Positions 767 through 64,000 of a DNA stretch of 64,000 nt are shown piece by piece. The notes beneath the pieces were generated by a model that did no database searches, was not told the DNA's origin, and saw only the letters and a list, made by a program, of their open reading frames with translations. The stretch comes from Lytechinus pictus. Lineage: Eukaryota. Position 1 is the stretch's first letter. Each line of letters starts with the position of its first letter. The stretch spans positions 6,326,001 to 6,390,000 of the forward strand of contig NC_087251.1 of NCBI RefSeq assembly GCF_037042905.1, given 5' to 3'. The translations under genes were made by a program, and so were the position numbers.

Positions 767-1018
767 GCCAATGGAGAACCAGTATCTGTCTTTATAGTGG
801 ATCTCAAAAGCCATTCAGAATCCATAGCCCAGTTAGCTAAGAGTGCTCACAAGCGACTCAAGACACTTCGACATCCAAATGTACTCCTCTATGTAGATGG
901 GCTAGAGACGGACAATGTCATCTATGTTGTGACTGAGGAAGTGACACCATTGGCTACTTTCTTGAAGACTAATGCACCAAAAGAATCAACAATATCTTGG
1001 GGATTATATCAAGTAGTG
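767..1018 (+). CDS. SCYL1: SCYL1 exon (pseudokinase N-lobe)
   Basis: cag|GCC..GTG|gtaagt; [32 protein letters not shown]. Confidence 0.93.
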
Positions 1019-2407
1019 GTAAGTGTTGCTCCTGGAGAGGGTTTCATCAACATTTTTGCCCGACAAGTTGTCAGATCTGACAAATTTCCTTGAATTTGAT
1101 CGGCTGAGAAACACTGTTACTGTCAGATAAAACGTTAGACAAGTTGTTTTATGAAACACTCCCCTGTATGATGAATTCTTTAAAGTGGATATAGACTCTA
1201 TAGAGTAAGATACCTTGGTATTATGGTTGATAATAATTGGAGCAGATAAAAGTAGCTGCTGCAATTTGTGTTCATGCCAGTTTGTCTACAAACTTTTCAT
1301 TTACATCTCACAAATTTACAGAAAGGACTGAGTTTCTTGCACAATGACTGCAAACTTAAACACAACAATGTAAACCTAAGCTGTGTATTTGTGAATCGGG
1401 CTGGGGAATGGAAGCTTGGTGCAGTGGACTACATCACTCCATCTGAAGGGGAAGGCAGCACCATTCCAGATAAGGGACTGAAGTCTCTAGAAAAATACAA
1501 CCCACCAGAAATGACTGATATGAGAGCTAAAAAGAGGCCATGCCCTTGGTAAGTTTAGCATTTGCCATTTCCAAATCAATGAATTTGAAAATGTTTGTTT
1601 GCTTGAATACACTTTTGTTGTCTCGCCCACCAGAGGTGAAGGCGAGACTTAGGGATCCAAATGTCGTCGGTCCGTCGTCCGTCCGTCACAAACCTTATGA
1701 CACATAACTCCAAAACCGTAAGTCACTTGTCAACCAAACTTGGATGGTAGATGGACTTGGGGGACCTGCATGTTATGCTGCAGTCAGAGGTCACATGGTA
1801 AGGTCAAAGGTCATTTTCGGGTCAACGTTAAAGTTTACATGCAAGACTCTCTTATGACACCTAACTCCGCAGCCGTAAGTCACTTTTCAACCAAACTTGG
1901 ATGGTAGATGGACTTGGGGGACCTTCATGTTATGCTGCAGTCGGGGGTCACATGGTAAGGTCAAAGGTCATTTTCAAAGTCAAAGTTTATGTGCAAGACT
2001 CTTATCACAAGTGTTATTCCATCCCAATCATTTCACAATGATTTGATACAATTCTGTTGCGTGCCCTCGCAAATCATGATATTTCTGGTTATTTTCATTA
2101 GTGGGCGAGACACAAAATCGCTTTTGCCTTGTTTGTTATTATCTGAATTAAGCAGGGATTTTTTTACATCTTAAAATATTGCTGATTTATATTTTTGCGA
2201 AGTAATGATAATGGTTTGATAATTATTGTGTACATATATTCATGTGTTTGAAAAGAAAACCTTTACTCCAATGAAATTGCAGATTAAAAATTAATGGTGA
2301 ATGTGGCTTGCTATTTACACTCACAAATTACTCATGAGTACTATGATACAGAATATTGGGGTTGTAGCTGGTGCATTTAGTCTCATTTTGTCAATTGAGT
2401 AAAAAAA

Positions 2408-2458
<51 letters not shown>

Positions 2459-16517: not shown

Positions 16518-17476
16518 TTTTTGTCTCACCTGCATAGCAGAGTGAGACTATAGGCGCCGCTTTTCCGACGGCGGCGGCGACGGCGGCGTCAACACCAAAT
16601 CTTAACCTGAGGTTAAGTTTTTGAAATGACAGCATAACTTAGAAAGTATATGGACCTAGTTCATGAAACTTGGCCATAAGGTTAATCAAGTATTACTGAA
16701 CATCCTGCCTGAGTTTCATGTCACATGACCAAGGTCAAAGGTCATTTAGGGTCAATGAACTTAGACCATGTTGGGGGAATCAACATCAAAATCTTAACCT
16801 AAGGTTAAGTTTTTGAAATGTCATCATAACTTAGAAAATATATGGACCTAGTTCATGAAACTTATACATAAGGTTAATCAAGTATCAATGAACATCCTGC
16901 TTGAGTTTCACATCACATGACCAAGGTCAAAGGTCATTTAGGGTCAAAGACCTTTGGCCGAATTGGGGGTATCTGTTGAATTACCATCATAACTTTGAAA
17001 GTTTATGGATCTGATTCATGAAACTTGGACATAATAGTAATCAAGTATTACTGAACATCCTGTGCAAGTTTCAGGTCACATGATCAAGGTCAAAGGTCAT
17101 TTAGGGTCAATGATCTTTGGCCAAATTGGGGTATTTGTTGAATTACAGCCATAAATTTGAAAGTGTGTTGGTCTAGTTCATAAAACTTGGACATAATAGT
17201 AATCAAGTATCACTGAACATCCTGTGCAAGTTTCAGGTCACATGATCAAGGTCAAAGGTCATGTTAAGGTCAAAGAACTTTGGCCACGTTGGGGGTATTT
17301 GTTGAATTGCCATCATATCTCTATAAGTGTATTGGTCTAGTTCATAAAACGTGGAAATAAGAGTAACCAAGTATCACTGAACATCTTGTGCGAGTTATAG
17401 TAGTTTTCAAAATCAGCACTGCTGCTATATTGAATCGCGTGATGCAGGTGAGACGGCCAGAGGCATTCCACTTGTT
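16518..17476 (+). mobile_element. HINE-like element with 4+ tandem units of ~163 bp, just downstream of the SCYL1 stop
   Basis: Subterminal IR GTCTCACCTGCAT (16523) / ATGCAGGTGAGAC (17442); (CGG)n tract; DR1 cores at 16732, 16924, 17087, 17249; ends CCACTTGTT; same family as 39210 and 52593. Confidence 0.82.
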
Positions 17477-30229: not shown

Positions 30230-31595
30230 AACAGGCAATACGAGCAATGTTGCGCCCCCGGTCGAACATGAATTTGCATGGAGCCCCCTAAGTTCAAGGT
30301 CAATTTGGCGCCCTCGGTTGAACATGAATTTGGCGCCATGTGAAATATCAATTTGCCCTCGGCCACCTTCTGAAACATGTATATGTCGCCTTATGGTCAA
30401 ACATCAAATTAGCGCTCCCCTAGTTTGAACATCAATTCGGCGCTCCCCTAGTTCGAACATCAATTTGGCGCCCCTCCCAGTTCAAACATCAATTTGGCGC
30501 CCACATCTAGTTCGAAAATTAATTCGCCCCGTCCCCCTTGTTCAAACATCAATTCGGCGCCCCATAGTTCGAACGTCATTTTGGCGCCGCCTAGTTCTAA
30601 CATCAATTTGGCGCCCCCCTCGTTCGAACATCAATTTGGCGCCCCAAGTTCGAATAGCAATTCGGCGCCCCCTAGTTCGAACATCAATTTGGCGCCCCTA
30701 GTTCGAACATTCAATCGGCGCCCCCCGATGTCGAACATATAAGTTTTGCGCCCCTACGTCAAACATCAATTCGGCGCATCCCCCCTACGTCGAACATCTA
30801 TTTGGCCTCCCTAGGTCGAACATAAATTTGGCATCCCTTCGAACTCAATTTGGCTTCCCTAGTTCGAATATCAATTCGGCGCCCCCTAGTTCAAACATCA
30901 ATTCGGCGCCCCCCCCCTAGTTCGAGTATCAATTCGGCGCCCCCCTAGTTTGAGTATCAGTTTGGCGCCCCCTAGCTCGAACATCGATTCGCCTCCCCCC
31001 CCCCCTAGTTCGAATATCAATTTGGCGCCCCCAGTTCGAACATCATTTTAACATCCCTTCGAACATCATTTTGGCGCCCTCCTAGATCGAATATCAATTC
31101 GGCGCCCCTACATATAGGTCCAACATCAATTTGGCGCCCCATAGGTCGAGTATCAATTTGGCGCCCCCTAGTTCCAACATCAATTCTGAGCCCCCCTAGT
31201 TTGAGTATCAATTTGGCGCCCCCTAGCTCGAACATCGATTTCCCCCCCCCCCTAGTTCGAATATCAATTTGGCGCCTCCAGTTCGAACATCATTTTAACA
31301 TCCCTTCGAACATCATTTTGGCGCCCTCCTAGATCGAATATCAATTCGGCGCCCCTACATATAGGTCCAACATCAATTTGGCGCCCCATAGGTCGAGTAT
31401 CAATTTGGCGCCCCCTAGTTCCAACATCAATTCTGAGCCCCCCTAGTTTGAGTATCAATTTGGCGCCCCCCTAGTTCGAACATCGATTCGGCCCCCTCCC
31501 CCCTTGTTCGAGTATCAATCTGGCGCCCCCAGTTCGAACATCATTTTAACATCCCTTCGAACATCATTTCGGCGCCCTTTTGGTTCGAACATCAT
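30230..31595 (+). repeat. Minisatellite of ~30-bp monomers (TAGTTCGAACATCAATTTGGCGCCCCC) with a ~247-251-bp higher-order repeat
   Basis: Roughly 40 monomers with variable C-runs; marker CATCATTTTAACATCCC recurs at 31041, 31288 and 31539. Confidence 0.92.
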
Positions 31596-32477
31596 TTTCT
31601 TTCCTCCTCTTCCTCTTTTTTTCTTCTCGTCCTTCCCCTCTTTCTTTCCCCTTTTCTTTCCCCCCCCCCCGTTCTCTCTCTTTTTTCTTCTCTTCTTTCT
31701 TCCCTCTTCCTCTTTCTCCTTTTTTCTCCTTTTCCTTTTCCCCTCTCTTTTCCCCCTTCTTCTTTCCCCTCTTCCTCTTTTTTCTCCCCCCTCCCCCTGC
31801 CTTTTCTTCTCTTCCTTCCCCCTCTTCTTCTTTTTTTTTTCTTTCTTTCCCCTCTTCTCCTTTTTTTCTTTTATTTCCCCTCTTCTTTTTTCTTCTTTTC
31901 TTTCCCCTCTCTTTTTTTTCCTCTTCTTTCCTCCCTCTTCCTCTCTCTCCTTTTCTTTTCCTCTCTTGTCTTCCCCCTCTCCCTCCCTTTTCTTCTCTTC
32001 CTCTTTTTTTCTCCTTTTCTTTCCTCTTTTTCCTCTCTCTCTTTTTCTTCTCTTCCTCCCCCCCTTCCCCTCTCTCTCTTTTTTCTCCTTTCCTTTTCCC
32101 TCTCTTTTTCCTTCTCTTTCTTTCCCCTTTTCCTCTCCCTTTTCCTTCCCTTCCTTCCCACTCTTCCCTTTTTCTTCTTTTCTTTCCCCCTTTCCTCTCT
32201 CTTTTTTCTCCTCTTCCTCCTTCCCCTCTTCCTCTCTCTTTTCCCCTCTTCTTTTCCCCTTTCTCTCTCTTCTCTTCTTTCGATCCTCCTTCTTCCTCTC
32301 TCTTTTTGTCTCCTTTTCCTTTCCCCTCTCCCTCTCTCGATCTTTCCTCTTTTCTTCCCCCCCCCCTCTTTCTCTCTCTCTTTTCTTCCCTTCTCCCCCC
32401 TCTTCCTTTCTTCTTTTTCTTCTTTTCTTTCCCCTCTTCCCCTCTTTTTTCTCTTTCTTTCCCTCTCTTTTTTTTTT
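31596..32477 (+). repeat. ~880-bp almost pure polypyrimidine tract
   Basis: Almost only C and T on the + strand, aperiodic. Confidence 0.95.
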
Positions 32478-32769
32478 AGCCTAAGGGGGGGGGGCCAAGG
32501 CCCCCTCGGCCCCCCATGGATCCGCGCCTGCCCTACCCCTTCTCCTCCGAGCTCCACCCCCCCCCCCCCTCCTCCTCACAGCGCGCGCTAGGTACCGTAA
32601 ATCCTGCACTTTTTTGTCTTCAATTGAGTAGAGCACCAACTAGCTGCTCTGTGTCAATTTTCTTTCTTATCATTATCATGATGTAAAAGTAAACGTAAAT
32701 AACCATCAAGGCTCATGAAATAGAATGCACAAAAATAGGCAAGTCTTTTAACAAGGCTATAAAAACTTT

Positions 32770-33000
32770 TAACCAATCAAAATGACGCGATGTGACTGCA
32801 CGCAACCGGTGCATATGATCTATGACCCTGGCGCAACAGGCCCGCCGCACCGCCTCGCGCCGCGCCTGGCCTAGCCTGCGGTGCCTGGAGCTGTCGGCGC
32901 GGCTGGCCGCCTGTGTGCGGCGTTAAGTTACGCTCCCTAGCGCCTAGCCTGCGCCCCTTCCCGCCCATTCTCGCTTGCCTCGTTTGAAAGTCATATCGCG
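32770..33000 (+). promoter_or_regulatory. GC/CpG-rich proximal promoter and 5' region of the bHLH-HMG gene
   Basis: CpG-dense patch in an AT-rich background directly before ATG 33001; TTCCCGC at 32958-32964 and TTTGAA at 32983-32988. Confidence 0.55.
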
Positions 33001-33230
33001 ATGCGGAAAATAAAGTCAAGAAGATCAAAATCTACTACCAAGACATCCCCGAAATCTAGTTTAAATGCCAATGGACCTCGCTTGAGGAGTACGAAACGCA
33101 TTGAAAATGTGAAAACAGTGGTGAAAAAGAAAGTGACGAAGTCGAAGAGGAAGAGTCAATCCGTACGGGGACCATCAGTGTCACCCGACGATCATTTGGA
33201 GAAACGGGAGATGCATCGAATCCATGAGAG
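33001..33230 (+). CDS. MEIOSIN: bHLH-HMG gene exon 1 (basic N-terminus and bHLH basic region)
   Basis: ATG 33001; ..HRIHE AG|gttggt (phase 2). Confidence 0.8.
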
Positions 33231-36200
33231 GTTGGTGTGGGGCGGTGTGGGGGTTGGTGATGTTTTGCCCCGGGTTTTCCTCCTGCAAATTACCCGGGGC
33301 AGTAGTAAATTTCAAAGGTGTAACTTTGCTTAAACTGTCAAACTTAACAGGAATATTTAGCAAAGACAGCAAACTTAACAAAGTAAAAAAAGGGGAGAGC
33401 AAAACCAAAATGAACAAATTTAAGCCTCAACAAGGGCAAGGCAAGCCAAATGTTACCGTCATGGCGTTAGACAGGTCTAATGAGTAATGTTACTGATAGA
33501 CTCCAACTTAAGTTAGTTAACTATAGGCCTACAGGCTACAGACTAGAAACTTGTATGTATACGACAACATAGGCCTTAAATTACGTTCGGCCTAACGTAC
33601 TCTGTACATACTACAAGGAACCTAAGACCAAAATATATTATCAGTCTATTTCGGTCATAAAACATTCTTTGCTGAGTTTTGACATTTGTCTGGCTTTGCG
33701 GAACTGAAAAAAAAAAACCAGAAAATAAAAAAAAACTCCTCTGGAAGTACAGCTAATTTTACAGTCTTCTCTAAGCCAGACTAAGGAAACCTATGCCCCC
33801 GAAAATAATTGGGCCTAGATCTAGTATACCCAGTTTTGTGCCCGGACAGGTTGCGTCTTCGGACAATCCATTTTAAACGGCCATTTGGAAAGTTAACAAC
33901 ATGAACAAGCAAACTTTCATCATAGTACAAAGTACAGTATTTGTAGAGAACAAAATTAAGATGGTTACAACAATAATTAAATTCCATGTTTTTTGTAATC
34001 TACACACAAAAAAGGGTGTTTCAAATTTTATATTTTTGATTCAACAATGTCAAAATCTATTTCAATGCATGATTTAAAATATGTCTAAAAGAAAGATCTG
34101 CAGTAAACACTGATTTGATGATAAAGTCTGTAAAATCAAAGTTAATAGTCATAATATCATCAAGGTTGTGTCAACCCTATCTCTGTGGCCTGGGCCATGG
34201 GCGGAAATCCCAAGGGGGGACATGTCCCCCCTACCCAAAATAGTAGGGGGGACACAATATCAAATGTCCCCCTATAATTGAAATAAAACATGTCATTTGG
34301 ACGAGATGACCTAACTTTTGGGGTGATAAGCTTTTTTTTTTTTTTAATTAAATTTATTTTGGTAAAAATAACCTTATATTTGGGGTGATAACCTTTTCTT
34401 TTTGGCTTGTCAAATTTTTCACCCCCTGGTTGGTCCCCCTACCTTTGGGGAGAGATTTCTGCCCTTGTCCTGGGCTATGGGCTATAAAAGGCCTGCTCAT
34501 GCTACTACAGAAAATTTTGGTCAATGTTTGTCTTGATCTAACCTTAACATTAAAAAGTTGGATCTTGGCCTAGAATCAACTTAAGGATCCACGGTTATGT
34601 TTGTGCACATTGTGATCTGCGTATATTTTACACTCCGTGTGCTGACGTCACAATGGATAAACAGGTGATTAATCAGCTGTAGGTATGAGCTGATTTTTTT
34701 CATTATCTGCACTCTAACTGCAGATCCTATGCGTTATTCTATGAGACTGATAAACTGGAATTATTCCATAGACCATTCCATTTTTAAAAATACCTCTACA
34801 ATTTCAAAATACTTTACTCTGCAGTGCTGCAAAGAATGACAGATATGACCCTGAGTTTGATTAAATGGTAGAGTGGTTTAAATTTTTCCTCACATAGATA
34901 TAAAGCATTTGGCACATTTTTTAGAACAAACCACATTTGCTCTAATAAAAGTGCTGATAGTTTGAAAACAAGCACATTAACACCTATTTTTCAATGTTTG
35001 CACTCATACATTCCTCTACAACTTTGCAAAGTTTGGTGAAAACGACATGGGTTTTGAATAAAGTGCAGCATTGATTGTACTTCTCAAGTTTGTTATTGAA
35101 ATATCACATTTTTGAGATTGGGTTTTTGTTATCTCTCACACCATTTAAGAACTGACAGTGCTGTTAGATTTAAGAGAGCAAACAAATAGCAATATAAATA
35201 GATACAATTATTAACTGTATTGCAAAATTTGATGAAATTTTTATGGATTTGAGTAATAGATGATTAAAACTCATTGTAGTGATCTCATGAGGTCTGAAAA
35301 TGTCAAATTCTTTTGAATGCGCAATACTTAACAACATCCATTTGAGGGAACTTTGAAGCTATATAGCAAAAAATCAAGCACATGGACCCATGTTAATTTT
35401 TACACATTTGGAATATTCAGGTGCTAATTATTTATGTGCAATGTTTGGTGAAAATGACATGGATTTCACTTTAACTGTGGAGTGTCCTTAAGACAGTTCT
35501 ATTGATCAAATCAAAATCATTGATTAATAAAGAGACAGTTGTGGGAAAGATGGAAATAGTAATGTACTGGTAATATTATTTCTGTCCACATTTTGGAACA
35601 ATATCATTTGTTGATATAATAATTACTTTTCATTGACTCAGTCACACACAAAAATAATCACAATGAATCGTAAGAGATTTTTGTAGGAAAGTTGTAAATA
35701 GATTTTGGGAATTTTCCATTTCTTTCTATATTTAGGAACAATATGACAGTAAATAATTATCTGTTGCAAAAGATAGCTGTTCAGATGCTTTCTAAACTCA
35801 CATTCATATTAATACCAAAAGTGGCCGAGATGGTCAGGCCCACAAATTGTCCCATAATTCTCTATATACTGGTATAATTATTGCACACTCAGTAAAATTG
35901 ATATTTAAAGGTCAAGCCCACCCCAGAAACATGTTCGAATAAATTGAGAAAAATCAAACTAGCCTAATGCTGAAAATTTCATCAAAATCGGATGTAAAAT
36001 AAGAAAGTTATGACATTTTAAATTATCGCTTATTTTCTCAAGACAGTGATATGCACAACTCATTGACATGCAGATGAGACAGTCATTGGTGTCCCTCACT
36101 TAATGTTTCTTCGTTTTTTATTGTTTGAATTATTCAATATTTCATTTTTTTTTTACAGATTTGACAATAAGGACCAACTTGACTGAACCGCATAGTATTA

Positions 36201-39200
36201 AACAATACTAATTCCACATGTTCAGGAAAGAATTAATCGTATCACTTGACAATGAGGACAAAATTAGAATATTACATATGGGCAATTCCATAAAATTATC
36301 AACCTTTTAGTACATCCGACCCACATTTTTCTCAAGTTTTACTTCACTTCATAAACTGACCAAGCCATGGTCCTTTGATAACATTACAGACTGTCAAAGA
36401 ACAAGAAATCAGAGACAGAAAATTTCATGAAGGTCCCACACATAGGGGGTCGGACGTACATATTTTATGGAATTGTCCATATAATAAAAAAAAAAAGAAA
36501 TAGTGAGTGGATGACATCATGTCTCCTCATTTGCATAACCCTTTTGTGAAATTAAGGAAAATCTAAAATATAACTCTCATTTTACACCCGATTTCGATTA
36601 AATTTTCAGTGTTATGCTTGTTGGATTTTCTCTTTTTATTCTAATCAACTTTTGGTTGGGGTGGACTTGTCCTTTAAGTCAGTCTGATAATAATACTACA
36701 AAAAATAACAATTATCATTACCATAAATAATCTTTTACATTGACCTTAAGTAGAGGTAAAACGCTGTTTGGATAATTTTCTTTTCATTTAGTTAGATCTA
36801 CTTCAATCTAATTATAAACTTACCATGTCTATATAATCCATTGATATCATTATGCAGGCGGAGACATTATAGTCTAAACCAGGCCATCAGGAAAATAATC
36901 AACAAGCTTCCTTCTTGTGAGGCAACTGAACCAGAAACAAAGGTAAATTTGAGAATACAATGGTCTGTAATGTTTATAATGCAAATATAATTATCAATAA
37001 TGACAATAAACATCATTTCCAGTAAGCCTAAATGTGTAAGGCATCCAGTCAGACAGACAAAAAGAATGAAAGAAAGAAAGAAAGACAGACAGAGAGAGAG
37101 AGGGAGACAGAAGAAAAGAAGAAAGAACCGATAATCAAATATCTCTTATTCCAATGTACACTAAAACAATTATGACTTCGGTTTGTTTACTTGCTCTTGA
37201 AAGAACTTGGAGAATACATGTATCCACCCATTGCATAAATATATTGGATTTGTTAATGAGACAATTGATTGCAATAGTGATAATAATAAATTGTTTCTAC
37301 TGCGGGAGTAAAAAAAATATTTGCACTAAAAAAAAATTGTCAATTCAATAAATATAAATCACAGCAAAGAATCCTACATGATTATCCAAGTGTGAATATA
37401 TACCATGTGCCAATGGTATCAAATTATTTTGGGGGAAAGAGGTAGTAGGGACATGTTCATGACAAGGAATTTCATTATAATTGCCAAATCTTTAGTTGCA
37501 AAGTTTTTTACTCACTCGGTATGATGAATGATAGAGTCACTATCTGCCTTCAATACGTAAGTGACGCTGTATAGCATATGATTGTTTATCAAAAGGTTCT
37601 GAATTTCTGATAGAGATATGGTAGACATATCAAATTTATATATTCAGTATGAAATATTGTTGAATAATATGAATGGGTAATATTTATTATCAATTTTTAA
37701 CAATATGAAAACATTGCTGCATTGTTTTTTTAAATGTACATATGCAGCCTACACATACCCCCAAAATAAATTTATGATTATATTAAAGGTAATTTGATAC
37801 AAAATAGTAAAAAAACACTAAAAATTAAAAATGAATTCTCTTGATTGACTGTTGTCTTTCTCTTCCTCCTGAATTCAATTTTACAGCACTATGTGTTGAG
37901 GAAGACAAGTGATTATATTCAGTTCTTAGAAGAAAAGATAAGTGCCCTATGCTTGGATTTGGATATAGAGCAAACAAATAATTGTGGAGATCTTTCATTC
38001 AGTTCTTCATTATATACTTTGATGGGTAAGTAGAAGTAGAAAAGACATGCAAGATCCTGGTGTCACCCAGTTCAAGTATTACACTGTACATATAGCTTCT
38101 CAGTTTAAACTTCAATGAGTATTTACTTTTTTAAACGTCTTTATCAAGTACTGGTACTTTTTAACATAAATTACAAGAAACAAAATTAAAGTTTAGCTTC
38201 TTATTTGACATTTAATAACAGAATAATTGTAACAATTAAAGGAAACCAAAACCCAAGAAGAGAAGCAATCTTATTGGAAAGAGTAAAGTGCGAAGAGCAA
38301 TCTAAAACTTGTTTTATAAAAATCGGTTATAAAATAATTGAGTTATGGAAGTTTGAAAACTCTTGTTGAACTTTCTATGGGGATCCTCAAATTGGCAAAC
38401 GTGCTTCAAAATGGCTGATTTTGTGGACAACTCTCCATTTGTTTTGTACACAAATTTTCTGATTTTCCTCATTATCTTTCAAATAGCATCTTGCCTCTTT
38501 CTGAGCACAACATATGTCATGGGAAAATATAATTCACACCACATATGTCAAGTATAGGAGGAGATAATGTGAAATATGTAAAATAAAGGGGAAACTCCAA
38601 CAAATTGTATACAAAGCAAATGGACAGTTGTCCACAAAATCAGCCATTTTGAAGCACGTTTGCCAATTTGAGGATCCCCATTGTAAGTAGAACAAGACTT
38701 TTTAAATGCCCATAACTTGCTCATTTCATAACCGATTTTGATGAAACTTGTTTTAAATTGTTCCTCTCATTTTACTCTTTCCAATAAGATTGCTTCCCTT
38801 CTTGGGTTTTGGTTTCCTTTAATAGCATTCAGTATTAACTCTTGGCATCAGTTTTCATTAGACATTTGACATCTAGAGTGTATGTACCCTTAACATGTGT
38901 ACCTTTTCAACCCAAGTAGAATCAAGTTTATTGACCAATAGGTGCTATGTAATTGCAGAGTATTTTTTCTCTCCTCACATGGTGAAGTCATTATTTCACT
39001 ACCTTTATTCTGATATTAGCCTTTACAAGTATGGCGATGCCTGCAATTATAGTCAAAAGTACACTTTAATTAGCTGAGCCCCAAAGATTAATTTATATTA
39101 CAGGGATTTATACTGCTTTTTACAAAGTCTGGTGTCTGAAAACTTTAATCTGCTTATGATGAAATCTTAAGAAAGACTGACTTTTTCAGCATTATTAGAC

Positions 39201-42200
39201 TAGGCATCATTTTTGTCTCACCTGCATAGCAGAGTGAGACTAGAGGCGCCGCTTTTCCGACGACGGCGGCGTCAACACCAAATCTTAACCGAAGGTTAAG
39301 TTTTTGAAATGACAGCATAACTTAGAAAGTATATGGACCTAGTTCATGAAACTTGACCATAAAATTAATCAAGTATTACTGAATATCCTGCCAGAGTTTC
39401 ATGTCACATGACCAAGATCAAAGGTCATTTAGGGTCAATGAACTTAGACCATGTTGGGGGAATCAACATCAAAATCTTAACCTAAGGTTAAGTTTTTGAA
39501 ATGTCATCATAACTTAGAAAATATATGGACCTAGTTCATGAAACTTGGACATAAGGTTAATCAAGTATTACTGAACATCCTGCATGAGTTTCCCGTCACA
39601 TGACCAAGGTCAAAGGTCATTTAGGGTCAATGAACTTTGGCAAAATCTGTTGAATTACCATCATAACTTTGAAAGTTTATGGATCTGATTCATGAAACTT
39701 GGACATAATAGTAATCAAGTATCACTAAACATCCTGTGCAAGTTTCAGGTCACATGATTAAGGTCAATGGTCATTTAGGGTCAATGAACTTTGGCCAAAT
39801 TTGGGGTATTTGTTGAATTACCATCATAACTTTGAAAGTATATTGGTCTAGTTCATAAAACTTGGACATAAGAGTAATCAAGTATCACTGAACATCCTGT
39901 GTGCATCTCAGGCCACATGACCAAGGTCAAAGGTTAATGAACTTTGGCCGTAATGGGGGTATCTGTTGAATTACCATCATAACTTTGAAAGTTTATGGAT
40001 CTGACTCATGAAACTTGGACATAAGAGTAATCAAGTATCACTGAACATCCTGTGCCAGTTTCAGGCCACATGACCAAGGTCAAAGGTCAATGGATATTGG
40101 CCATGTTGGGGGTATTTGTTGAATTACCATCATAACTCTAAGTATATTGGTCTAGTTCATAAAACTTGGACATAAGAGTTGTCAAGTATCACTGAACATC
40201 TCATGCGAGTTTCAGGTCACATGACCAAAGTCAAAGGTCATTTAAGGTAATTGAACTTTGGCCATTTTAGGGGTAATTATTAGATTGCTGTCATAACTTT
40301 CAAAGTTTATAGATATAGTGTATAAAATGTGGATATAGGGGTAATCAAGTATCACTGACAAGTTTTAGGTCACATGATCAAGGTCCAATGTCAATGAACG
40401 TAGTATTGTATCATTATATGAATGGTGTTTTTTGTGAATAATTATTTAAATGGTGTTTTTCAAAGTCAGCACTGTTGCTATATTGAATCGCGTGATGCAG
40501 GTGAGACCGCCAGAGGCATTCCACTTGTTTGTAGATACAGTATAAGCAGTTGATGTAAAATAATCATATCAAGGAAAAGTATTTTTCGACAGAGTGTACT
40601 TTTCTATCTGATTAAATTAAATAGTACCCAGTGTAATAAACCACATGAGCTAATGACCATCTTAAAAAAAATCCCATTGACTCTATGGTGATAAAACTTC
40701 TGCATTTTTCTGATTATCAGTTTCATGAAATGTACATTTGCTACACTCCTGAATTTGAGCTATCAATTTCATCGGTTTTCAGTGGCAATAGAATCAGCTT
40801 GAAAATTAATTCATTAATTTTACCTTCCTACCTTCTTTTCCAAAATATGTAGCATTTATTTCAAAAAATTTCATGTAGAGAAAAATAGATAAGTTATTTG
40901 CTTTCAGACAATTCCATGACATTTGCTCCAGTGACATTGCTCTGCTGTAATTTCTACACGCTGATAGAATAACTAACTTCAGCCCCAGATTAAGGACTAT
41001 TCCCTATCCTGAACCTAACATAAAATCATATTGCAACCCTAAGCCTAATGCTACAGCTTAGACCAAATAAACTCCAGAGCAGTTGTTGATGGAGCTAATG
41101 TCGTGTCACCTAAAAGTATCTTCTGTTTGACTCCACACAGTATGCAATCTTAGTCAGCGTTAGTTCAGAAAGACAACTGCTTCCCGATTGACTTAGGAGT
41201 GCATGATTGTTCATCATCTCAACTTCACTAACTTTTTATTCTCTTTCAAATTACAGATGGAATTCAGAAAGAGATTCCTGCTGATACACCAATTTCTTTG
41301 GAATCCATACAAGATTTGTTAACCAGGCTTGACTGTCAAGTTGACAAGTCTTTGACAAGTTTGACAACCAAGAAGAATTCAACCAAGGGTAAACCGAGAT
41401 CCATGAAAGCTACACGTAAGAAGAAAATAAAGCTCATCCATCAAGATGGCCCCAAAGTGACAGAAATTGGCGATGAGTATCTCCAAGAAAATGACATCAA
41501 AGAAGATGATGAAGAGTCCCTCAGTACAGTAAACACTCAGGATAGTCTGCTAGCAAGCAGTTCCATGAGTGGAATGATGTGCTCTGAGAGTTCAATTGAA
41601 ACAGATGTTTCTCAATCAAACCAGATGAACTCTTCTGTCAGCTCTACCTGGGGCACAGGGTCCCTTGATGATGGTTTTAGCAGCAGCAAGACCACTGATC
41701 AGGAATCTTCACAGGGAAGCACTAGTTCCATCTCTAGCCATGATAGGCCACAAAGGGGAGATTCTCTGGCAGATCTCATTAGAAGTGACACAGGAGTGAA
41801 ATATATCCCAACTCTCTCTGAGGTCAATCAAAAGAGCAAACACATTAAATGGAGTCAGAAGACATCTTTGCAACAAGTGGTTCTCCAAGTTCCCACATTC
41901 TCACCTAACCAGCTATCTATTCCTACCAACAGGACCAAGGACAAGCAAGGACCAATTTCATTCATTTGCCACGGAGATGGCAATGAGGTGTACAATCAGG
42001 CTGATTCAACCAATTTCTTGCCACTAAAGAAAAGCAGTTGCATGTCATCTGATAACATTGCTCATACTCCAACTGTTCTCTTTCAACCAAGTTCATGTAG
42101 TCAGTATGGTCACACCCAGCAGAACCCTGTCCCCATGATTTCTCCAATAAAACCTCTTTCAGACAGCACTGTCCCTGTGTCGGCCCAACATAATATCCTC

Positions 42201-45200
42201 AACAGAAACCTTGTCCCTACTGCTGATCCTCACCCAACCATCGGATATATTAACTGTACATTGAGCAATTGCTTAGATGACAAACTCACTGGTCCAAACC
42301 TTGGCATGTCCTGCACCAGTGTCCATCCATTTGAGGTGTATCACAAACAGTCCTCACTGTTTCAACCCTTGAAGCAAACTGTTGAAATTATCTTAGATGT
42401 TGGAGATGATCCATTGGTGATGAAGTCCTTTCTTGGAGAGAAGATTTTTTCTAAGAGGTCTGGGATAGATGGTTTCGAATTATTCATAAAGGTCAATATC
42501 AAGAGATTCCAAGAGTAAGTATTTGAAAATATAATCAAAGTATTAGAAATAGATACAGATAATTCAATTTGTACGAATTGACTGATAAATTGAATAAATA
42601 CAAAGTACTGTAGATTCCAATGTTCATATCTTCAGTAGATCAATACATCTGGTCAATTGGATGATGCATACTAGATTGAAAATAAAAGATGGAATGAAAA
42701 TACCTGTATGGATCACAATCTTGCAGTCAGGAAAACTATTTAAACATTCTTTAAGTATTCGAAATATTTGTATTTTGATTCATTGTATACATGTAAATCA
42801 ACCTAAAAAATGCAATATAGCCAATTTGAAAGCAAAATAGTCAGCTGGTAAGCAATTAAAATGTATAAAACCTGCAACGTACTTGCTAGATTTGAGTCAT
42901 GTGTAGCAGAGATCTCCAAATGGATGGGGCAGAACTACTTGAAAATCAACCAGGCGAAGTCTGAATTCATTTTCTTTGGCTCTTCCCAACAGATCAAAAA
43001 GGTCATCATTCCTAACCTAAAAATTGGTGATGTACATGTTGAGCCTGTTTCTAAAGTTCGCTCGCTAGGTTTGACACTTGATAGTACTATGTCTATGGAA
43101 CCACAAATCTCTAGCTGCATCAGATCATCATTTTATCACATTAGGCAGATTCGTCGGATCCGGGATTACCTGAATCCCCATGCAACGAAGCAGGCAGTTC
43201 ATGCTCTTGTCACATCACGTTTGGATATGTACAACAGTACTTTGGTTGGACTGCCTGATACTCAAATAAAACGACTACAGAAGGTCCAGAATTCTGCCGC
43301 ACGACTTGTAAAGCGTTCAAAGTTGTCGGATCATATCACCCCAGTTCTTAAGGAATTACATTGGCTGCCTGTTAGGCAAAGACTTGCATATAAAGTTCTT
43401 TCCTTGGTCTTTAAACTGAAAACCAACCAGACACCAGTGTACCTATCAGATCTTCTGGAGTTGAAGAGATCGTGTAGACCCGGTCTTCGTTCAGGGAATG
43501 TTCACCAGCTCCAACAAGTTAGAGTGAAAAGGTCCTGGGGTGACAGATCTTTTTCCGTTGCTGGTCCCCGTTTGTGGAATTCAATCCCATCGGACATTAA
43601 GTCGTGCCAGTCAAGAGAGCTATTCCACAGCAAATTGAAGACTTACCTCATGAGGGAAGCATTTCCTTAACTGTTGTGTGATAAGGCCATTTTTTATTTT
43701 TTGACTACCAACTTAACTGATTGTGTATTTTTTCTTCTCAGTTTGTTCATTTTTATGTATTTATTGATTTCTGTTTTATATAAGTAGTTAATTGTGCGCC
43801 TTGAGTGTCATCGACAGATATGTGCGCTATACAAATCTTTAATTATTATTATTATTATTAAGGTATTATTCTGCAACTGCTACTCATATCTTTTAAACAA
43901 TGTATACTGGTAATCGTTTTGACTTCCAATATGGTCTTTACCGTTCTCCTTTTTAACAAACTGCTGCATATATATTTCATTTCATCATAGTGGTTGGCCT
44001 GCACTGACAAGTAAAGAAATCAACAGACTCATTGGACAAGCATGGAATGAAATACCTGACCACTACAAACAGCTCTATGGGTAAGACAGGAATTAACAAA
44101 CATAGAAAAATTATCACATTCATATGCATGTTTATGAAAGAATGCTGCTCTTGCTTTTATTGATAATGTCTCAGTTTTCCCCCAAACATAGATATTCTGA
44201 AAGTAAATCTTCATACGCTTTAGATAGATCTTCTCATTTTGCATTTTTGAATGTGGTACAAGGAAAAAAGAAACTGACCCACACATTTTCCATAATGTGA
44301 AAAGTTTGCACTGTAAAGTCTTGCGCACACCTTTTGAGACCAAATTTGAATCTAACTTGAATCTTGTTGGACCACAGGAATTTGTCCCCCTCCGGCAAAA
44401 TTGACAAGAAGTGACAACACACGAGTAGTATGAGGTCTGAAAAATGTATTTGACTTGGGTGATTATTCAATTTATAGAAGTTTGACTTTTAATATGCGGA
44501 TTTGAACTTTTAGAAGCCATTATACTTCACATATATTCTGATGACTTTTCCATGTATTTGTCTTCCTTTTTCTTGTATCCTAGAAAAAGAGCTTGCGCAT
44601 GGAACCTTCGGCACAAGAAGAGAACAAAGTCAAAGATTACCTTGTAAGTTTTGCATAATGGAACAATTCTTTAAGATCTTTGTTTAATCAAATAAATCAG
44701 GTCAGTGAGCTCAACTCCTTAAGGGATAGGAAAGCAAACCTATCAAACGTATGCAGAAAGGAGGATAATTGACTAAAAAATCATCATGAATTTGCATTTT
44801 ACTTTAGTTTTTTGTAACCATGGTGTTGATAAGATTTATATTTGATTTATTAATCCAACAATACACACTTATTGGTTGTTTTTATATTCATTCTCTTTTA
44901 TAATTCAACTTTTTTTTTTATTGCATTTTGTATTATGAAGATCAAGTTGACAGGATTTCTCATAGAATCATTCTACTTTATAATTGATATTGTTTCATTA
45001 CTTGCATAATCAAAGTTTTAGCAATGACATGTGACATGTAAGCATAGGTCATATGCAAAGCTTGTCTCTGTTAGAAATTTCATATTGAATACAAGTCAAT
45101 GAAAACTGAACATCAACAAGAAAAAAAAACTCTTTAGAAGCAGAATTGTAAATTTTATCTGAAGGTCTCAAAAGATTGTTCTGATCTATGCACATTGTAC

Positions 45201-45496
45201 TTGTCTATTTTGTGCATTTGAGTTGGACGATGGCAGCGCAGAATTAGGTATAATTATATTGCATGCTGGCAAGCAAACATTAATACAAAGTTTTCTGGTA
45301 TCGAAATAGTTGCTTTAAAGTTGAATGTGTAATAATTAAAATCATACGAAAATATTTAGTGCTATCACTTTATCATCAGAATTTTGTATAAAGAGAGGTC
45401 TACATACTGCAAAATAATAAGAGCTTTTTTCGTTTCAGAGGATCTGAGTGTTATTCTAGTCAAAAAGTTAATAAACTTGTTTTGAAGGAGTTATAG
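33001..45496 (+). CDS. MEIOSIN: bHLH plus HMG-box protein, MEIOSIN/BHMG1-like (621 or 639 aa)
   Basis: Exons 33001-33230, 36858-36942, 37887-38025, 41257-42514, 43991-44080, then either 44584-44647 (stop) or 44584-44643 plus 45439-45496; all GT-AG and phase-compatible. bHLH: KREMHRIHERRRHYSLNQAIRKIINKLPSCEATEPETKHYVLRKTSDYIQFLEEKI. HMG: KRSGIDGFELFIKVNIKRFQDGWPALTSKEINRLIGQAWNEIPDHYKQLYGKRACAWNLRH. The symbol rests on domain architecture only. Confidence 0.75.
34196..34467. mobile_element. hAT-like MITE
   Basis: gcctgggc|CATGGGCGGAAATC ... GATTTCTGCCCTTG|tcctgggc; TSD matches at 7 of 8. Confidence 0.75.
34585..35487. mobile_element. TTAA-flanked element; short, array-less version of 54116-56793
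   Basis: ttaa|GGATCCACGGTTATGTTTGTGC ... TAACTGTGGAGTGTCC|ttaa; colinear with 54116-54970. Confidence 0.85.
35909..36673. mobile_element. TTAA-target MITE (Kolobok/T2-like) containing a nested MITE
   Basis: ttaa|AGGTCAAGCCCACCCCA ... TGGGGTGGACTTGTCCT|ttaa. Confidence 0.82.
36280..36478. mobile_element. 199-bp MITE with a 4-bp ATAT TSD (Sola-like)
   Basis: atat|GGGCAATTCCATAAAA ... TTTTATGGAATTGTCC|atat. Confidence 0.75.
36858..36942 (+). CDS. MEIOSIN: bHLH-HMG gene exon 2 (helix 1 and loop)
   Basis: tgcag|G..AAG|gtaaat; RRHYSLNQAIRKIINKLP..ETK. Confidence 0.85.
37887..38025 (+). CDS. MEIOSIN: bHLH-HMG gene exon 3 (helix 2)
   Basis: ttacag|CAC..G|gtaagt; HYVLRKTSDYIQFLEEKI. Confidence 0.85.
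38240..38818. mobile_element. TTAA-target MITE (Kolobok/T2-like)
   Basis: ttaa|AGGAAACCAAAACCCAAGAAG ... CTTCTTGGGTTTTGGTTTCCT|ttaa; ~200-bp inverted arms. Confidence 0.88.
39210..40529 (+). mobile_element. HINE-like element with ~7 tandem units, in intron 3 of the bHLH-HMG gene
   Basis: Same termini as 16518-17476: TTTTTGTCTCACCTGCATAGCAGAGTGAGAC ... ATGCAGGTGAGACCGCCAGAGGCATTCCACTTGTT. Confidence 0.85.
40909..41110. mobile_element. Degenerate small MITE
   Basis: GACATTTGCTCCA ... TGGAGCTAATGTC inverted ends; internal CCTAAC-like repeats. Confidence 0.45.
41257..42514 (+). CDS. MEIOSIN: bHLH-HMG gene exon 4 (long Ser-rich linker and HMG helix 1)
   Basis: ttacag|AT..GA|gtaagt; 1258-bp open frame (ORF 41298-42518). 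Confidence 0.9.
42876..43860 (+). mobile_element. 5'-truncated L2-group LINE: ORF2 C-terminal region, 3' UTR and (TAT)n tail; 5' boundary approximate
   Basis: ORF 42861-43670 with WMGQNYLKINQAKSE, HALVTSRLD, LQKVQNSAARL, HITPVLKELHWLPV and DRSFSVAGPRLWNSIP; ends GCGCTATACAAATC..ATTATTATTATT. Confidence 0.92.
43991..44080 (+). CDS. MEIOSIN: bHLH-HMG gene exon 5 (HMG helices 2-3)
   Basis: catag|T..GG|gtaaga; GWPALTSKEINRLIGQAWNEIPDHYKQLY. Confidence 0.88.
44584..44647 (+). CDS. MEIOSIN: bHLH-HMG gene exon 6 (end of HMG helix 3); stops at 44647 or splices after 44643
   Basis: Polypyrimidine tract then cctag|A; KRACAWNLRHKKRTKSKITL*; TT|GTAAGT overlaps the stop. Confidence 0.8.
45439..45496 (+). 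CDS. Possible terminal exon 7 of the bHLH-HMG gene
   Basis: ttttttcgtttcag|A; phase-compatible with the donor at 44644; GSECYSSQKVNKLVLKEL*. Confidence 0.45.
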
Positions 45497-45611
45497 GTCA
45501 ATTAGTATGCATTTTCTGTCATTGCAGAATTTCAATATTTTTTACAAAGTTAAAGTATATGTTGCAATATCTACTATGCAATGTAATATGATATATGAAG
45601 TTATATATATA

Positions 45612-46424
45612 CAGTGCGTCCCACAAAAAAACGAAACCGAGATGTATCGATGATTTATCATAACTTAATCGCAAATACAATAGACAAATTACCTACCATT
45701 TTAAAGCTTAGAATCTCCTCTTTCATCTGAAATTACTTAGATTATTTCTCATTCACGCATGAATGAGCAAAAACAATTTGAAAAGGGGATACCAAAAAGT
45801 CACTTGGCGGGCCGTATCTGGGTTTTAAAAAGAAAACCACATTTTTAAAAAGTTCAATATCTGCTCTTTAATTTGATACCTCAATTACAGAAAATGGTCA
45901 AGAAATAACAAAGTTCTGGTTATTTGAAATAAGGCTTGAATTTCAATAATTTCATAAAATGAAGAGGTTTTACAGGCTAGCGTTCAAACTCACTCGACAC
46001 TCTGTTTTGTTGACGATCAGCCATGCATTAAGTCTTTTGTTATCGTGCGATAGCTTCTGTGGGAAACCGGTGAAAACATGTTTATTTAATGAAATTATGG
46101 AAATGCAAGCATTGTTTCGAGGGATCATAACTTTTTTACTACTTGACCATTTTCTGTGATTTAGGTATCAAAGAAAAGAGAAGATATTGAACTTTTTAGT
46201 CATGTGATTTTCTTTTTGAAATTCAGATACTCCCCGCCAAATGAGTTTTTGGCATCCTTTCTTCGAATTGTTTTTGCTCAATCATGCGTGAATAAGGAAT
46301 AATCTAAATAATACCAGATGAAAGAGAGATTCTAAGCTTTACATTGGTAGGTCATTTGTCTATTTTATTTATGATATGATAAATCATCGCTAAATCTCGG
46401 TTTCGTTTTTTCTGGGACGCACTG
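45612..46424. mobile_element. Tc1/mariner-type MITE with long inverted arms
   Basis: ta|CAGTGCGTCCCACAAAAAAACGAAACCGAGAT ... ATCTCGGTTTCGTTTTTTCTGGGACGCACTG|ta. Confidence 0.9.
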
Positions 46425-60800: not shown

Positions 60801-62595
60801 TAATTACACAAAATATTGTTTTTCTAAAGATATGTGGTTCTACTTTTTCAAACCTTTCTGCATTTCATGAAACCATATGGTTTGTCTTATTTTCCAGATT
60901 TTTTTGTGAACAACATGGTTTGTCTTATTTTCCAGATTTTTTTTTACAACTTGAAAAAAGTAAGGAGTTTCAATACTGTATATAAAAAAAATAAGTGATC
61001 ATCAAGGGAAGTCCAAATATGTAGATGATTGATATGTCATTTTTTTACATCTTATAATAATTCCACATTAGCATGCAAGAGGAAGTCATCTTCCATGCTA
61101 GGGTGAATCAATTATAAAGGTTTTCTTCTCATGCTCAATGACAAAGAAATTAACCTGCTCTGACCAGCGAAAATCAACAGTTTAGCTGAAGGGATTCACA
61201 AAAGTATACGCCTACATGAAATCAATAAATTAAAATGGTTAGAATCACCTATTTCATGTTCTATGGAGATAAAAAAGTACTTTTTCAGTTCACTTTATGT
61301 CAAATCAATAACTTGAATTAAAATAGGTCTACTATTTATAGTTTCTGAATCCAAATCCTGCAATTAAATGCATTATATATTGTGTCGTACGGGACAACTA
61401 TTAATAGGACAATTATTGAAAAATGAAGGGCAGTAATTAGATCCTTATGGGATTAATCGATCACCCATGGGTCAAAGATAGAGAAACTGATTTTGTGAAA
61501 TTGCATCATCAAAAATAAGATTGTAGGAAAAACTTGTGCATTTTCATGTGTCGTACGGGACATTGCCAAAAATAGGTTCGGAAAAATCAGGGCTGCCCCT
61601 ATTATGGATCATGAAAATGTTGTAGATATTATTTGGAACCATCAATGATACATTATTCCATTGACCTGCAATATTTTCAATCTTCTCGTGCTTTGCCAAT
61701 AATTGTTTCAGGCAGTGTTTGTACTTGACTATTTAATTAGCAAAATAATTGAAAATTGAAAATTCCATTGTTCCCCCCCAAAAAAACTATATCTGACTTC
61801 ACTTTTGATTAAAACTCATAATTTTCATAAAAAAAGGTATCATAGTAAAATATTACACTACTTATGACTTATTGAAAGCATGTTAAAATTTATGATATTT
61901 TTGAAGTTCTAGTGTGGAATCGCCCAAATACATAAGAAAAAATATTGAAACCACAATATTTTCAAGTAAGTTTGGTAAGAGTACTGCAAATAGTCAGAAT
62001 AAAAATTAGTATATTTGGAGTTTCACTTAGTGATTTAGAACAAAAATATATTAATTCCAGCATATAATCAGCATTAATAAGGATAAAACCTTGTTTAATT
62101 AAAGATAAAATGTGTTGAACTTGTATATGCTTTCTATATTTCTCTTGTTTACTACAAAGTCAAGCCTTGGGTTTAACTTTAAATGACTACTAACCACTCC
62201 TCTATTTTCAATACAGTAGTTGAAGTATCTGAAATTCAAACATCTCCTTATATAAGGTTGTTTCACAATGGGGTGCACATAATTTTCATTTAAACCACAG
62301 TTTAAGCTAAACGCATTGCTATTAGAAAAATCCTTAGTTTAGAATATGGATAAAAGTGTTCAGAAATTCTTGATTACTAAGACTTTTTTTGCACACCAAA
62401 CAACATCTTACCATTCATAGAATTGCAGCATTTTTGCAGGAATATTTCTGTAAGTATCTACAACATCCAGAAGGAGTATATCATTCTGATCCTCAGCCTC
62501 GGCTTGGAGAGCTTTTGTCTCATTGACAATCTTTGAATGCCATTTTGAAGATTGTTCTTCGCTTACATTCATCCAAACAGAGAGTTTATCAGGTT
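57684..62595 (-). CDS. B3GALNT2: UDP-GalNAc:beta-1,3-N-acetylgalactosaminyltransferase 2 (GT31); 5'-partial, last 4 coding exons
   Basis: Exons 62595-62412, 59519-59441, 58708-58521, 57888-57684, phase-compatible. Motifs DVVDTYRNIPAK, KTDDD, WWGQFR..GKWAE..YPSFACGSG, QGEDVSLGIWLAA, and C-terminal CGDPCGC. Confidence 0.93.
58521..58708 (-). CDS. B3GALNT2: B3GALNT2 exon
   Basis: tatgaag|AGC..AG|gtattt; LWWGQFRFGWSVEHHGKWAE..YPSFACGSG; acceptor less certain. Confidence 0.88.
59441..59519 (-). CDS. B3GALNT2: B3GALNT2 exon (DxD motif)
   Basis: ttacag|G..CAG|gtgagt; VVQSSNIQYVIKTDDDVYMNLDNIMQ. Confidence 0.93.
59775..61925. mobile_element. 2.15-kb non-autonomous TIR element with a 4-bp AAAT TSD (Sola-like), in a B3GALNT2 intron
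   Basis: aaat|GGGTGATTTCATA ... TGTGGAATCGCCC|aaat; ~7 dispersed TGTGTCGTACGGGAC motifs. Confidence 0.72.
62412..62595 (-). CDS. B3GALNT2: B3GALNT2 exon
   Basis: ttcttcag|AA..TG|gtaaga; ALQAEAEDQNDILLLDVVDTYRNIPAKMLQFYEW. Confidence 0.92.
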
Positions 62596-63640
62596 CTGAA
62601 GAATGGAAAGAGGGAGGATTTAAAATAATTGTATGTTCTTTTCATTGTGTTGCCAACAACTGACAAGAATTCAGAAAATGTCTGCAAGATTAACAGGGGT
62701 CTTAGGTGATCAAATAACATGCAATAACAAATGAAATAAAATAATTTTTTTAACATGACAGAAAATGTTTACTTCATTTTTTTAAAACTGATCATGGATT
62801 GAAGAATGGTTATTAAAAGGGACCATATAGTTATACTTGAAATGATTTTACTTACCATGAATATTGTAAATAAAGTTGCCTGAAACCAAAGCTTCTGTGC
62901 CTCTATCAAGTTTTTCAACTTTCTCAGGAAATTCTGAATTGTCCTCGCTATATCTGCTATACTGAATTCACAAGAAAACAATATGACAATGTTTGTTTGT
63001 TTAATATTGAAAAGAGGAAAAGAAGAGGTGTTATACAACAGCAAATAATCATTGCTTGGCTTGATATATTCCTCTAACTTGCACAGTTTTATGCATCATA
63101 CCTCTGTATGATATTGAAAATTTGCAAGTTCCTGATTTATTTTTGAAAAATGTAATACAATAATAACATGCTGTTTAATATGCACTTCAATGAAAAATCA
63201 AAAGAAACAGGAGATGCTTTCGAGCTGTCCACAATTATCAGCGAATTATGCAATTCAAATTCTCTACAGTATCGTTTCTATAGTACCCCATTTTTCATGA
63301 CTCAATGAAAGCTACATATTATCCAGATAATTATATACAGACGGATTGACGTGATAGAGCATGATGAATATCCTATGTTCAAGATAGAAAATAACATTTT
63401 TTTCGTTCAGAATAATGTACAAAATACATTCCATTATTCAACTCAATTTCTACAGATGTTTAATTAATGTATCGTATATAACATAAAATAACTCTCTAAG
63501 CAAACAAATACACTTCACAGACCTATGTATCAAGTATGTATTTACGAAATCTGAAATGCTTGATCATTATGAGCAATGAAGAATAAATCAACAGTACAAT
63601 CAATTATCAAGCTTTGTTTTATGGGTCCTTTGCCTTTCCA

Positions 63641-64000
63641 TTTATTAGATAATGTAAGATTCGCCAAGCTTTACCTGTTGTAGTTCTATAACACCCCCTT
63701 TTTATTGGATAATGTAAGATTCGCCAAGCTTTACCTGTTGTAGTTCTATAACACCCCCTTTTTATTGGATAATGTAAGATTCGCCAAGCTTTACCTGTTG
63801 TAGTTCTATAACACCCCCTTTTTATTGGATAATGTATGATTTGCCAAGCTTTACCTGTTGTAGTTCTATAACACCCCCTTTTTATTGGATAATGTATGAT
63901 TTGCCAAGCTTTACCTGTTGTAGTTCTATAACACCCCCTTTTTATTGGATAATGTAAGATTCACCAAGCGTTATCTGTTGAAGTTCTATAACACCCCCTT
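63641..64000 (+). repeat. 60-bp minisatellite, at least 6 copies, running off the window end
   Basis: TTTATTGGATAATGTAAGATTCGCCAAGCTTTACCTGTTGTAGTTCTATAACACCCCCTT repeated in register. Confidence 0.96.

Follow-up and report, generated by a model that had tools for sequence, protein, structure and literature searches.

Does the pairing of a domain of the basic helix-loop-helix (bHLH) type with an HMG box in one protein, as in vertebrate MEIOSIN (BHMG1), have a counterpart among invertebrates? This question is raised by a locus in a stretch of 64,000 nucleotides of contig NC_087251.1 (positions 6,326,001 to 6,390,000, forward strand; hereafter the window, from whose first letter positions are counted below unless a chromosome is named). 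The initial annotation of this stretch had read there a MEIOSIN-like gene of an apparent invertebrate, and the organism is indeed one, the sea urchin Lytechinus pictus. We favor, on balance, the explanation that the locus holds a single-copy, transcribed gene for a 621-residue bHLH-HMG factor that is most likely orthologous or pro-orthologous, on the ambulacrarian side, to MEIOSIN and that would, by homology, act as a meiotic switch. The evidence comes from the transcript, from a family of similar proteins in five phyla and from the chromosomal neighborhood of human BHMG1.

Gene structure and transcript

Six exons with AG/GT borders join in frame into 621 codons followed by a TAA stop, as read directly at the exon junctions. 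The coding sequence (CDS) occupies 33001-44647 on the plus strand, and all introns are GT-AG. The spliced product is letter-for-letter identical to P0001, the RefSeq 'uncharacterized protein LOC129265086 [Lytechinus pictus]' of 621 aa, and the long open frame of exon 4, used as a query, also retrieves RefSeq protein LOC129265086 at 100% identity. The phase-compatible exons and the single frame of about 620-640 residues in the initial annotation were therefore read correctly; the gene had also been called hidden, and this does not hold, as it is already annotated in RefSeq with exactly the six-exon model.

Four public sequencing runs, referred to by their coded sample labels X1, X2, X4 and X22, were aligned to window positions 32700-46300. 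In X2, a single contig of 2177 nt (depth 18.7) aligns as six pieces that match the six exons (32942-33228, 36856-36940, 37885-38024, 41256-42514, 43992-44077 and 44582-44859) and spans all five junctions, including the proposed 33230/36858, 42514/43991 and 44080/44584, each of which is GT-AG. In order, the five introns have phase 2 (within the codon that follows ...IHE), phase 0 (in the bHLH loop), phase 1 (past bHLH helix 2), phase 2 (past the first HMG helix) and phase 2 (where HMG helix 3 begins). The features of the gene are as follows.

32942..33000, plus strand: 5′ untranslated region (UTR), minimum extent; the X2 contig starts at 32942 and the ATG is at 33001
33001..33230, plus strand: exon 1 CDS, covering a Lys/Ser-rich N-terminus, then the basic region and the beginning of helix 1 (...EKREMHRIHE-R); donor GT at 33231
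36858..36942, plus strand: exon 2, remainder of helix 1 and the bHLH loop; X2 piece 36856-36940
37887..38025, plus strand: exon 3, bHLH helix 2 and the start of a conserved post-bHLH stretch; X2 and modelled helix 105-129
41257..42514, plus strand: exon 4, structured post-bHLH stretch, disordered Ser-rich linker and first HMG helix; X2 and structure model
43991..44080, plus strand: exon 5, central part of the HMG box, with helix 2; joined to exon 4 in X2 and X1
44584..44647, plus strand: exon 6 CDS, HMG helix 3, with the TAA stop at 44645-44647; product identical to P0001
44648..44859, plus strand: 3′ UTR, minimum extent; X2 contig unspliced to 44859, AATAAA at about 44691
33202..37931, plus strand: span coding for Pfam HLH (aa 68-120), broken by introns 1 and 2; positions derived from the exon table
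42474..44623, plus strand: span coding for Pfam HMG_box (aa 558-614), broken by introns 4 and 5; from the exon-table coordinates
45439..45496, plus strand: unsupported last exon of a 639-aa model, frame-compatible only on paper; X2 reads through the donor

The X2 contig carries exons 1-6, and therefore a single mRNA encodes both the bHLH domain and the HMG box, as had been proposed, rather than separate transcripts. A contig in X1 links 42514 to 43992 (exon 4 to exon 5) and contigs in X4 cover exon 4, which brings the transcript to three of the four runs; the raw-read RNA run X22, a coded sample, has zero depth over every exon. Given the six pieces in X2 and the empty X22, the six-exon model is therefore the expressed form and expression of the gene is not ubiquitous. 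A seven-exon model of 639 aa (donor after 44643, acceptor before 45439) would have placed the end of the gene at 45496. This extra exon was dropped, since the X2 contig passes 44643 unspliced and extends to 44859, and since both the RefSeq protein and its Strongylocentrotus purpuratus orthologue end at the earlier stop (...STL vs ...ITL).

The gene is single-copy. Searched against the 812-Mb genome, the L. pictus and Patiria proteins each match only the locus at 6.36 Mb of chromosome C7. The next-best bHLH match, on C13, was considered as a paralogue and turned out to be a Twist-like open reading frame (ORF). In the search for a STRA8-like partner, no paralogue of the bHLH-HMG gene was found in the L. 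pictus genome.

Domain architecture and a bHLH-HMG family across phyla

The bHLH domain is split over exons 1-3, as the initial annotation had it, and is recognized by Pfam HLH at residues 68-120 (E = 1.4e-5; 25.2 bits, above the cut-off of 20.7). Pfam HMG_box is found at residues 558-614 (E = 1.1e-3), split over exons 4-6 and spanning profile positions 8-64 of 69, with a score of 19.7 bits under the cut-off of 25.4. Single-exon Pfam scans are near-empty, with exon 5 alone matching HMG_box (E = 0.006).

A model built with AlphaFold2 (AF2) from 13 ambulacrarian sequences places two bHLH helices at residues 62-93 and 105-129 (predicted local distance difference test, pLDDT, 70-88) and three HMG helices at 557-572, 578-591 and 594-620 (pLDDT 81-95). 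Residues 177-550 are modelled as disordered (pLDDT <50); the long Ser-rich linker that had been seen earlier lies at residues 181-545, contains 15.9% Ser and is part of the modelled disorder. Adjoining the bHLH domain, residues 131-180 (window 37964-38025 and 41257-41343) form a stretch that is conserved in Ambulacraria, has no Pfam match and is modelled as four short strands (134-158) followed by a helix (166-179; pLDDT 72-78). It is worth noting that this structured stretch, shared by the ambulacrarian members, may be a difference from MEIOSIN. When the model was compared with PDB by Foldseek, the top matches of the HMG box were the HMG boxes of HBP1, BBX, UBF and SOX17 (E = 0.02-0.06; template modelling score by target 0.54-0.76). 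Thus, both domains of the MEIOSIN/BHMG1 architecture are found in the urchin protein, the bHLH domain by Pfam HLH and the AF2 helices, and the HMG box by the AF2 fold, the Foldseek matches and orthologues that pass the Pfam cut-off. The HMG box over exons 4-6, described earlier as clear, is upheld by these three lines and not by its own Pfam score. Profile searches of PDB gave the USF bHLH for the ambulacrarian bHLH profile (E = 5.7e-6), and the family HMG profile matched SOX18, SOX17, SOX30 and HBP1 with scores of about 48 bits; these PDB searches with the family HMG and bHLH profiles returned no MEIOSIN or STRA8 chain.

We then asked how widely this architecture is distributed. A phmmer search with P0001 against 1.84 billion representative sequences (threshold E <= 1e-3) returned 26 matches, 24 of known taxon: 10 from echinoderms, 2 from hemichordates, 1 from a brachiopod, 10 from molluscs and 1 from an annelid. 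All five echinoderm classes are represented (Strongylocentrotus, Diadema, Patiria, Amphiura, Holothuria, Apostichopus, Antedon and Anneissia). Outside the echinoderms, there are members in two hemichordates (Saccoglossus and Ptychodera), in the brachiopod Lingula, in ten clusters of molluscs and in the annelid Owenia; further members, from Acanthaster, Asterias, Diadema antillarum, a chiton and Lamellibrachia, were recovered by profile searches. HLH is followed by HMG_box in 20 of the 26 phmmer matches, across five phyla; the remaining six are three fragments (two Apostichopus records, which are halves of one gene, and one exon-4 fragment), two HLH-only proteins and one protein with four HMG boxes. 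Nearly all members are labelled 'uncharacterized', and two mollusc members appear in UniRef as 'Sex-determining region Y protein'.

Conservation is concentrated in the two domains. Identity to distant members is 34-47% in the bHLH domain, 22-42% in the HMG box and 13-21% in the linker, and the columns that do not vary in the family include, for the basic region, H-x3-E-R-x-R-H and, for the HMG box, G, P, W and Y. With the S. purpuratus orthologue, identity reaches 69% over the whole protein and 79% within the HMG box. A tree of 32 HMG boxes unites the 21 family boxes in a single group (support 94/90), within which ambulacrarian and lophotrochozoan sub-groups are visible, and 11 other L. pictus boxes, including the Sox-like ones, fall outside. 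The grouping with Sox-type boxes that could have undone the initial annotation was thus not observed. The start of the box reads SW(I/M)NG(Y/F) in relatives, vs SGIDGF in L. pictus and SGMDGF in S. purpuratus, so that a near-invariant Trp and Asn of the family have been lost in these two urchins. At the corresponding residues 552-558 (window about 42456-42476), Apostichopus likewise lacks the Trp and Asn. Judged from the alignment, the HMG box of camarodont urchins may bind DNA less strongly as a result of this loss.

Could the gene be an artefact of gene prediction, with a neighboring bHLH gene and HMG gene wrongly fused, or a decaying pseudogene? The long introns are full of repeats, and the HMG box both scores under the Pfam cut-off and has lost two family-conserved residues. 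However, the exons lie on one spliced contig, the frame stays open over all 621 codons, the same architecture recurs in the five phyla, and the S. purpuratus orthologue retains the identity given above, which is higher in the HMG box than overall. We consider such an artefact extremely improbable. The protein is almost certainly a real bHLH-HMG transcription factor, and it is a member of an old bHLH+HMG family of bilaterians.

Probable relationship to vertebrate MEIOSIN

What, then, connects this family with MEIOSIN? As described in the available part of Shimada et al. (Genes Dev 2026; PMC13637641), MEIOSIN has both bHLH and HMG domains in one protein together with long disordered regions, which is the likeness to the urchin protein, and the HMG box is its most consistently conserved feature. 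A significant direct sequence match between the two was not found by phmmer at E <= 1e-3, and the urchin HMG box is divergent. A whole-protein search of the ESM Atlas (7.7 million clusters) ranked a mollusc HLH+HMG cluster first (0.84) and a 'meiosis initiator protein' cluster of Chordata second (0.77), the latter being the nearest chordate cluster; both ranks are under the bar of 0.9 and are leads only. For the member from the cephalopod Argonauta hians, the submitters chose the name 'basic helix-loop-helix and HMG box domain-containing 1-1', which is that of BHMG1.

The chromosomal neighborhood provides a second kind of evidence. According to the available part of PMC4863877, human BHMG1 shares a block of 128 kb with QPCTL, FBXO46, SIX5, DMPK, DMWD, RSPH6A and SYMPK. 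All three markers whose human position is taken from that text, corresponding to SIX5, RSPH6A and SYMPK, share the urchin chromosome C7 with the bHLH-HMG gene: three Six genes found by SIX1_SD are all at C7:19.6-20.0 Mb, Radial_spoke matches a gene at C7:42.9 Mb and, a second time, at 1.9 Mb, and Symplekin_C is at C7:32.0 Mb. C7 makes up 6.1% of the genome, and only 1 of 35 HMG_box matches, spread over 14 contigs and used as a control, falls on it. Markers for IRF2BP1, OPA3, VASP and ERCC1, whose human genes we take to be located in 19q13.32, were added; IRF-2BP1_2, OPA3 and VASP_tetra are at C7:17.9, 13.2 and 18.7 Mb, respectively. In total, six of the seven marker families with a match map only to C7 (binomial P = 3.5e-7). 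The human BHMG1 region (19q13.32) and urchin C7 share ancestry. The resemblance of neighborhoods is at the scale of the chromosome only; there is no microsynteny, and the adjacent gene is SCYL1-like.

Several observations weigh against a link to MEIOSIN. No chordate is among the 24 taxon-labelled matches of the 26 found by phmmer at E <= 1e-3, and any pairwise similarity to vertebrate MEIOSIN would, by this search, be weaker than that threshold for the fast-evolving urchin protein. A search with the full-length family alignment gave 5 proteins, all invertebrate, and one with the HMG-only alignment gave 21 proteins, no vertebrate MEIOSIN among them; both used a 5-mer pre-filter and are weak evidence. 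When the Atlas was searched with the HMG box alone (that of Lingula), the 'meiosis initiator' cluster was not listed and an HBP1-like cluster was at rank 2. This signal having vanished, the whole-protein Atlas match may therefore reflect little beyond shared domain composition. The L. pictus box itself stands on a long terminal branch (1.92), lacks the Trp and Asn, and has the sub-threshold Pfam score given above. On the chromosomal side, the seventh marker, Rad10/ERCC1, is on C10; the DMPK_coil profile has no match in the L. pictus genome, where its controls are silent too; four human positions are our assumption; and although the placement of the bHLH-HMG gene on C7 is what orthology predicts, it would occur by chance alone about 1 time in 16. 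The empty run X22 also belongs here.

These points raise the possibility of an independent bHLH+HMG family, in which an ancestor among the invertebrates brought the two common DNA-binding domains together on its own; the resemblance to MEIOSIN would then be convergent, and the protein would serve another developmental programme. The missing vertebrates among significant phmmer matches fit this explanation, and so do the generic or HBP1-like boxes returned by the HMG-only Atlas search, an HMG profile about equidistant from the PDB boxes of SOX, HBP1, HMGB and CIC, and a link to meiosis that is so far proposed by homology. By contrast, the domain order and the long disordered linker are common to MEIOSIN and the urchin family, six of seven markers of the human BHMG1 neighborhood are on one urchin chromosome, and the nearest chordate cluster among 7.7 million, as a lead only, is 'meiosis initiator protein'. 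We also know of no further family in animals in which HMG_box comes after HLH, which we count against a separate origin. An independent family thus appears unlikely to us, and the L. pictus gene is a probable MEIOSIN orthologue or pro-orthologue. Of the orthology claimed by the initial annotation, the shared architecture and the macrosynteny stand, and orthology at the level of sequence stays a proposal, vertebrates being missing from the significant phmmer matches.

It is also conceivable that the urchin gene is a pro-orthologue of both MEIOSIN and STRA8, with the vertebrate heterodimer arising by duplication and the urchin protein working alone as a homodimer. STRA8 is likewise described, in the available part of PMC13637641, with a bHLH and an HMG-like domain and as active at meiotic entry, and the same text treats it as a vertebrate gene that is missing even in some fishes. 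Only one gene of this kind is present in L. pictus, where the next-best bHLH match is the Twist-like ORF, and the two Apostichopus records are halves of a single gene, as such a history would have it. However, the single STRA8-neighbor marker tried, Nup192/NUP205, whose human gene we take to adjoin STRA8, is on C19 and not on C7; it also served as a control for the clustering of markers on C7. A joint ancestry with STRA8 is, in our judgment, quite unlikely, and orthology or pro-orthology to MEIOSIN remains the preferred reading.

Comparison with other domain families sets the urchin protein apart. SOX, HBP1, BBX and CIC share with it the three-helix HMG fold, supply the top Foldseek matches of the urchin box, and score about 38-48 bits with the urchin family profile against their solved boxes. 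They differ in having no bHLH domain, and the family boxes form the separate group described above; the urchin Sox-like boxes start with RPMNAF, vs SW(I/M)NG(Y/F) in the family and, for L. pictus, SGIDGF. In PDB, the family bHLH is matched best by group-B bHLH factors (USF, MITF/TFE and Max), with which it keeps the basic-region His and Glu contacts. Unlike in these factors, the family bHLH is joined to an HMG box, and it has His in the alignment at a position where, by the rule as we take it, H-E-R factors have Arg. Fission-yeast Ste11, which regulates entry into meiosis, has an HMG box and long non-globular regions; it is likened here by description only and differs in having no bHLH, and in the available part of Shimada et al. 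it is cited as a parallel to MEIOSIN (PMC13637641).

Possible function and surroundings of the gene

If the homology holds, the following mechanism could be proposed. The bHLH domain would be the module of dimerization and DNA contact, with the His, Glu and Arg contacts of its basic region kept; it would dimerize with itself or with another bHLH protein and contact E-box-like DNA. The HMG box would bind the minor groove nearby and bend the DNA, and the disordered Ser-rich linker of about 370 residues would carry activation or regulatory sites. Dimerization and DNA binding of the urchin protein are thus predicted from its domains. By homology, the factor might then switch on meiotic genes in germ cells as they enter meiosis, a function that we put forward only tentatively, as somewhat less than an even prospect. 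A wider proposal would see in this single-copy gene the ancestral bilaterian meiosis-initiation factor, the source of MEIOSIN and possibly of STRA8, with an urchin protein that would start the meiotic programme alone, either as a homodimer or together with some general bHLH protein, and with a bHLH domain that is original and predates STRA8. We regard this as rather doubtful.

The implications depend on the family being the invertebrate counterpart of MEIOSIN. If it is, both domains were joined before the deuterostome-protostome split; the bHLH domain would therefore not be an invention for STRA8, and that of MEIOSIN cannot have arisen for it. The meiotic-entry switch could then predate the vertebrates, as the initial annotation had suggested. 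Laboratory breeding and gene editing are both possible in L. pictus, which would make meiotic entry outside the vertebrates directly testable. In the available part of their paper, Shimada et al. propose the bHLH-STRA8 interaction as a derived enhancement of an HMG core (PMC13637641), a proposal on which a pre-vertebrate family with both domains bears directly. The same authors state there that more distant species were left unanalysed, and a word search of that available text returned no mention of invertebrates, non-vertebrates, amphioxus, urchin, tunicate or outgroup (PMC13637641).

We searched the literature on MEIOSIN, BHMG1 and STRA8 in invertebrates and found, among the papers listed, no description of the bHLH+HMG family, and no paper mentions the six LOC identifiers of family members that were looked up. 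The nearest report is a preprint on a sea anemone, where 'Meiosin' appears, in the part available, in a list of meiotic genes (10.1101/2025.09.17.676462). In the available parts of PMC11879061, PMC7290932, PMC12824366 and PMC4729902, MEIOSIN and STRA8 occur only for vertebrates or in reference lists.

The remaining observations concern the surroundings of the gene in the window. The upstream neighbor (728-13713, plus strand) resembles a SCYL1-type pseudokinase: some exons are weakly kinase-like or HEAT-repeat-like, and the C-terminal exon is acidic and rich in Ser; the name SCYL1 was not found by a search and is what we take it to be from its peptides. An intron of this gene contains an open Tc1/mariner-type transposase frame (5774-6571, plus strand; DDE_3 with E = 3.8e-13, and HTH_Tnp_Tc3_2). 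A CT-rich low-complexity tract of about 1.1 kb with several open frames (31447-32590) ends about 350 bp before the transcript start, and GC content is raised to 0.45-0.48 across 30-34 kb.

Repeats are found within the gene and beyond it. High-copy repeats occupy 35878-36785 (intron 1), 38148-40871 (intron 3) and 45412-46300 (downstream of the gene), where summed contig depths range from thousands to hundreds of thousands and many joints are false. In intron 4, an 819-bp open frame (42852-43670, plus strand) has a reverse transcriptase tail (weak RVT_1, E = 0.12), and contigs of other transcripts map to it.

A scan of the window for direct repeats of RGKTCA gave no DR2-type repeats and two DR5-type repeats, at 17256-17272 and 1808-1824 (plus strand), vs 0.10 expected. 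One of the two reads as a perfect AGGTCAnnnnnAGGTCA and is located 15.7 kb upstream of the ATG. Both sites are far from the gene and could be retinoic-acid response elements or parts of repeats. Toward the end of the window, on the minus strand, there are a short Galactosyl_T-like frame (62411-62641; E = 1.4e-4) and an ORF made of tandem units of about 19 residues (63619-63960).

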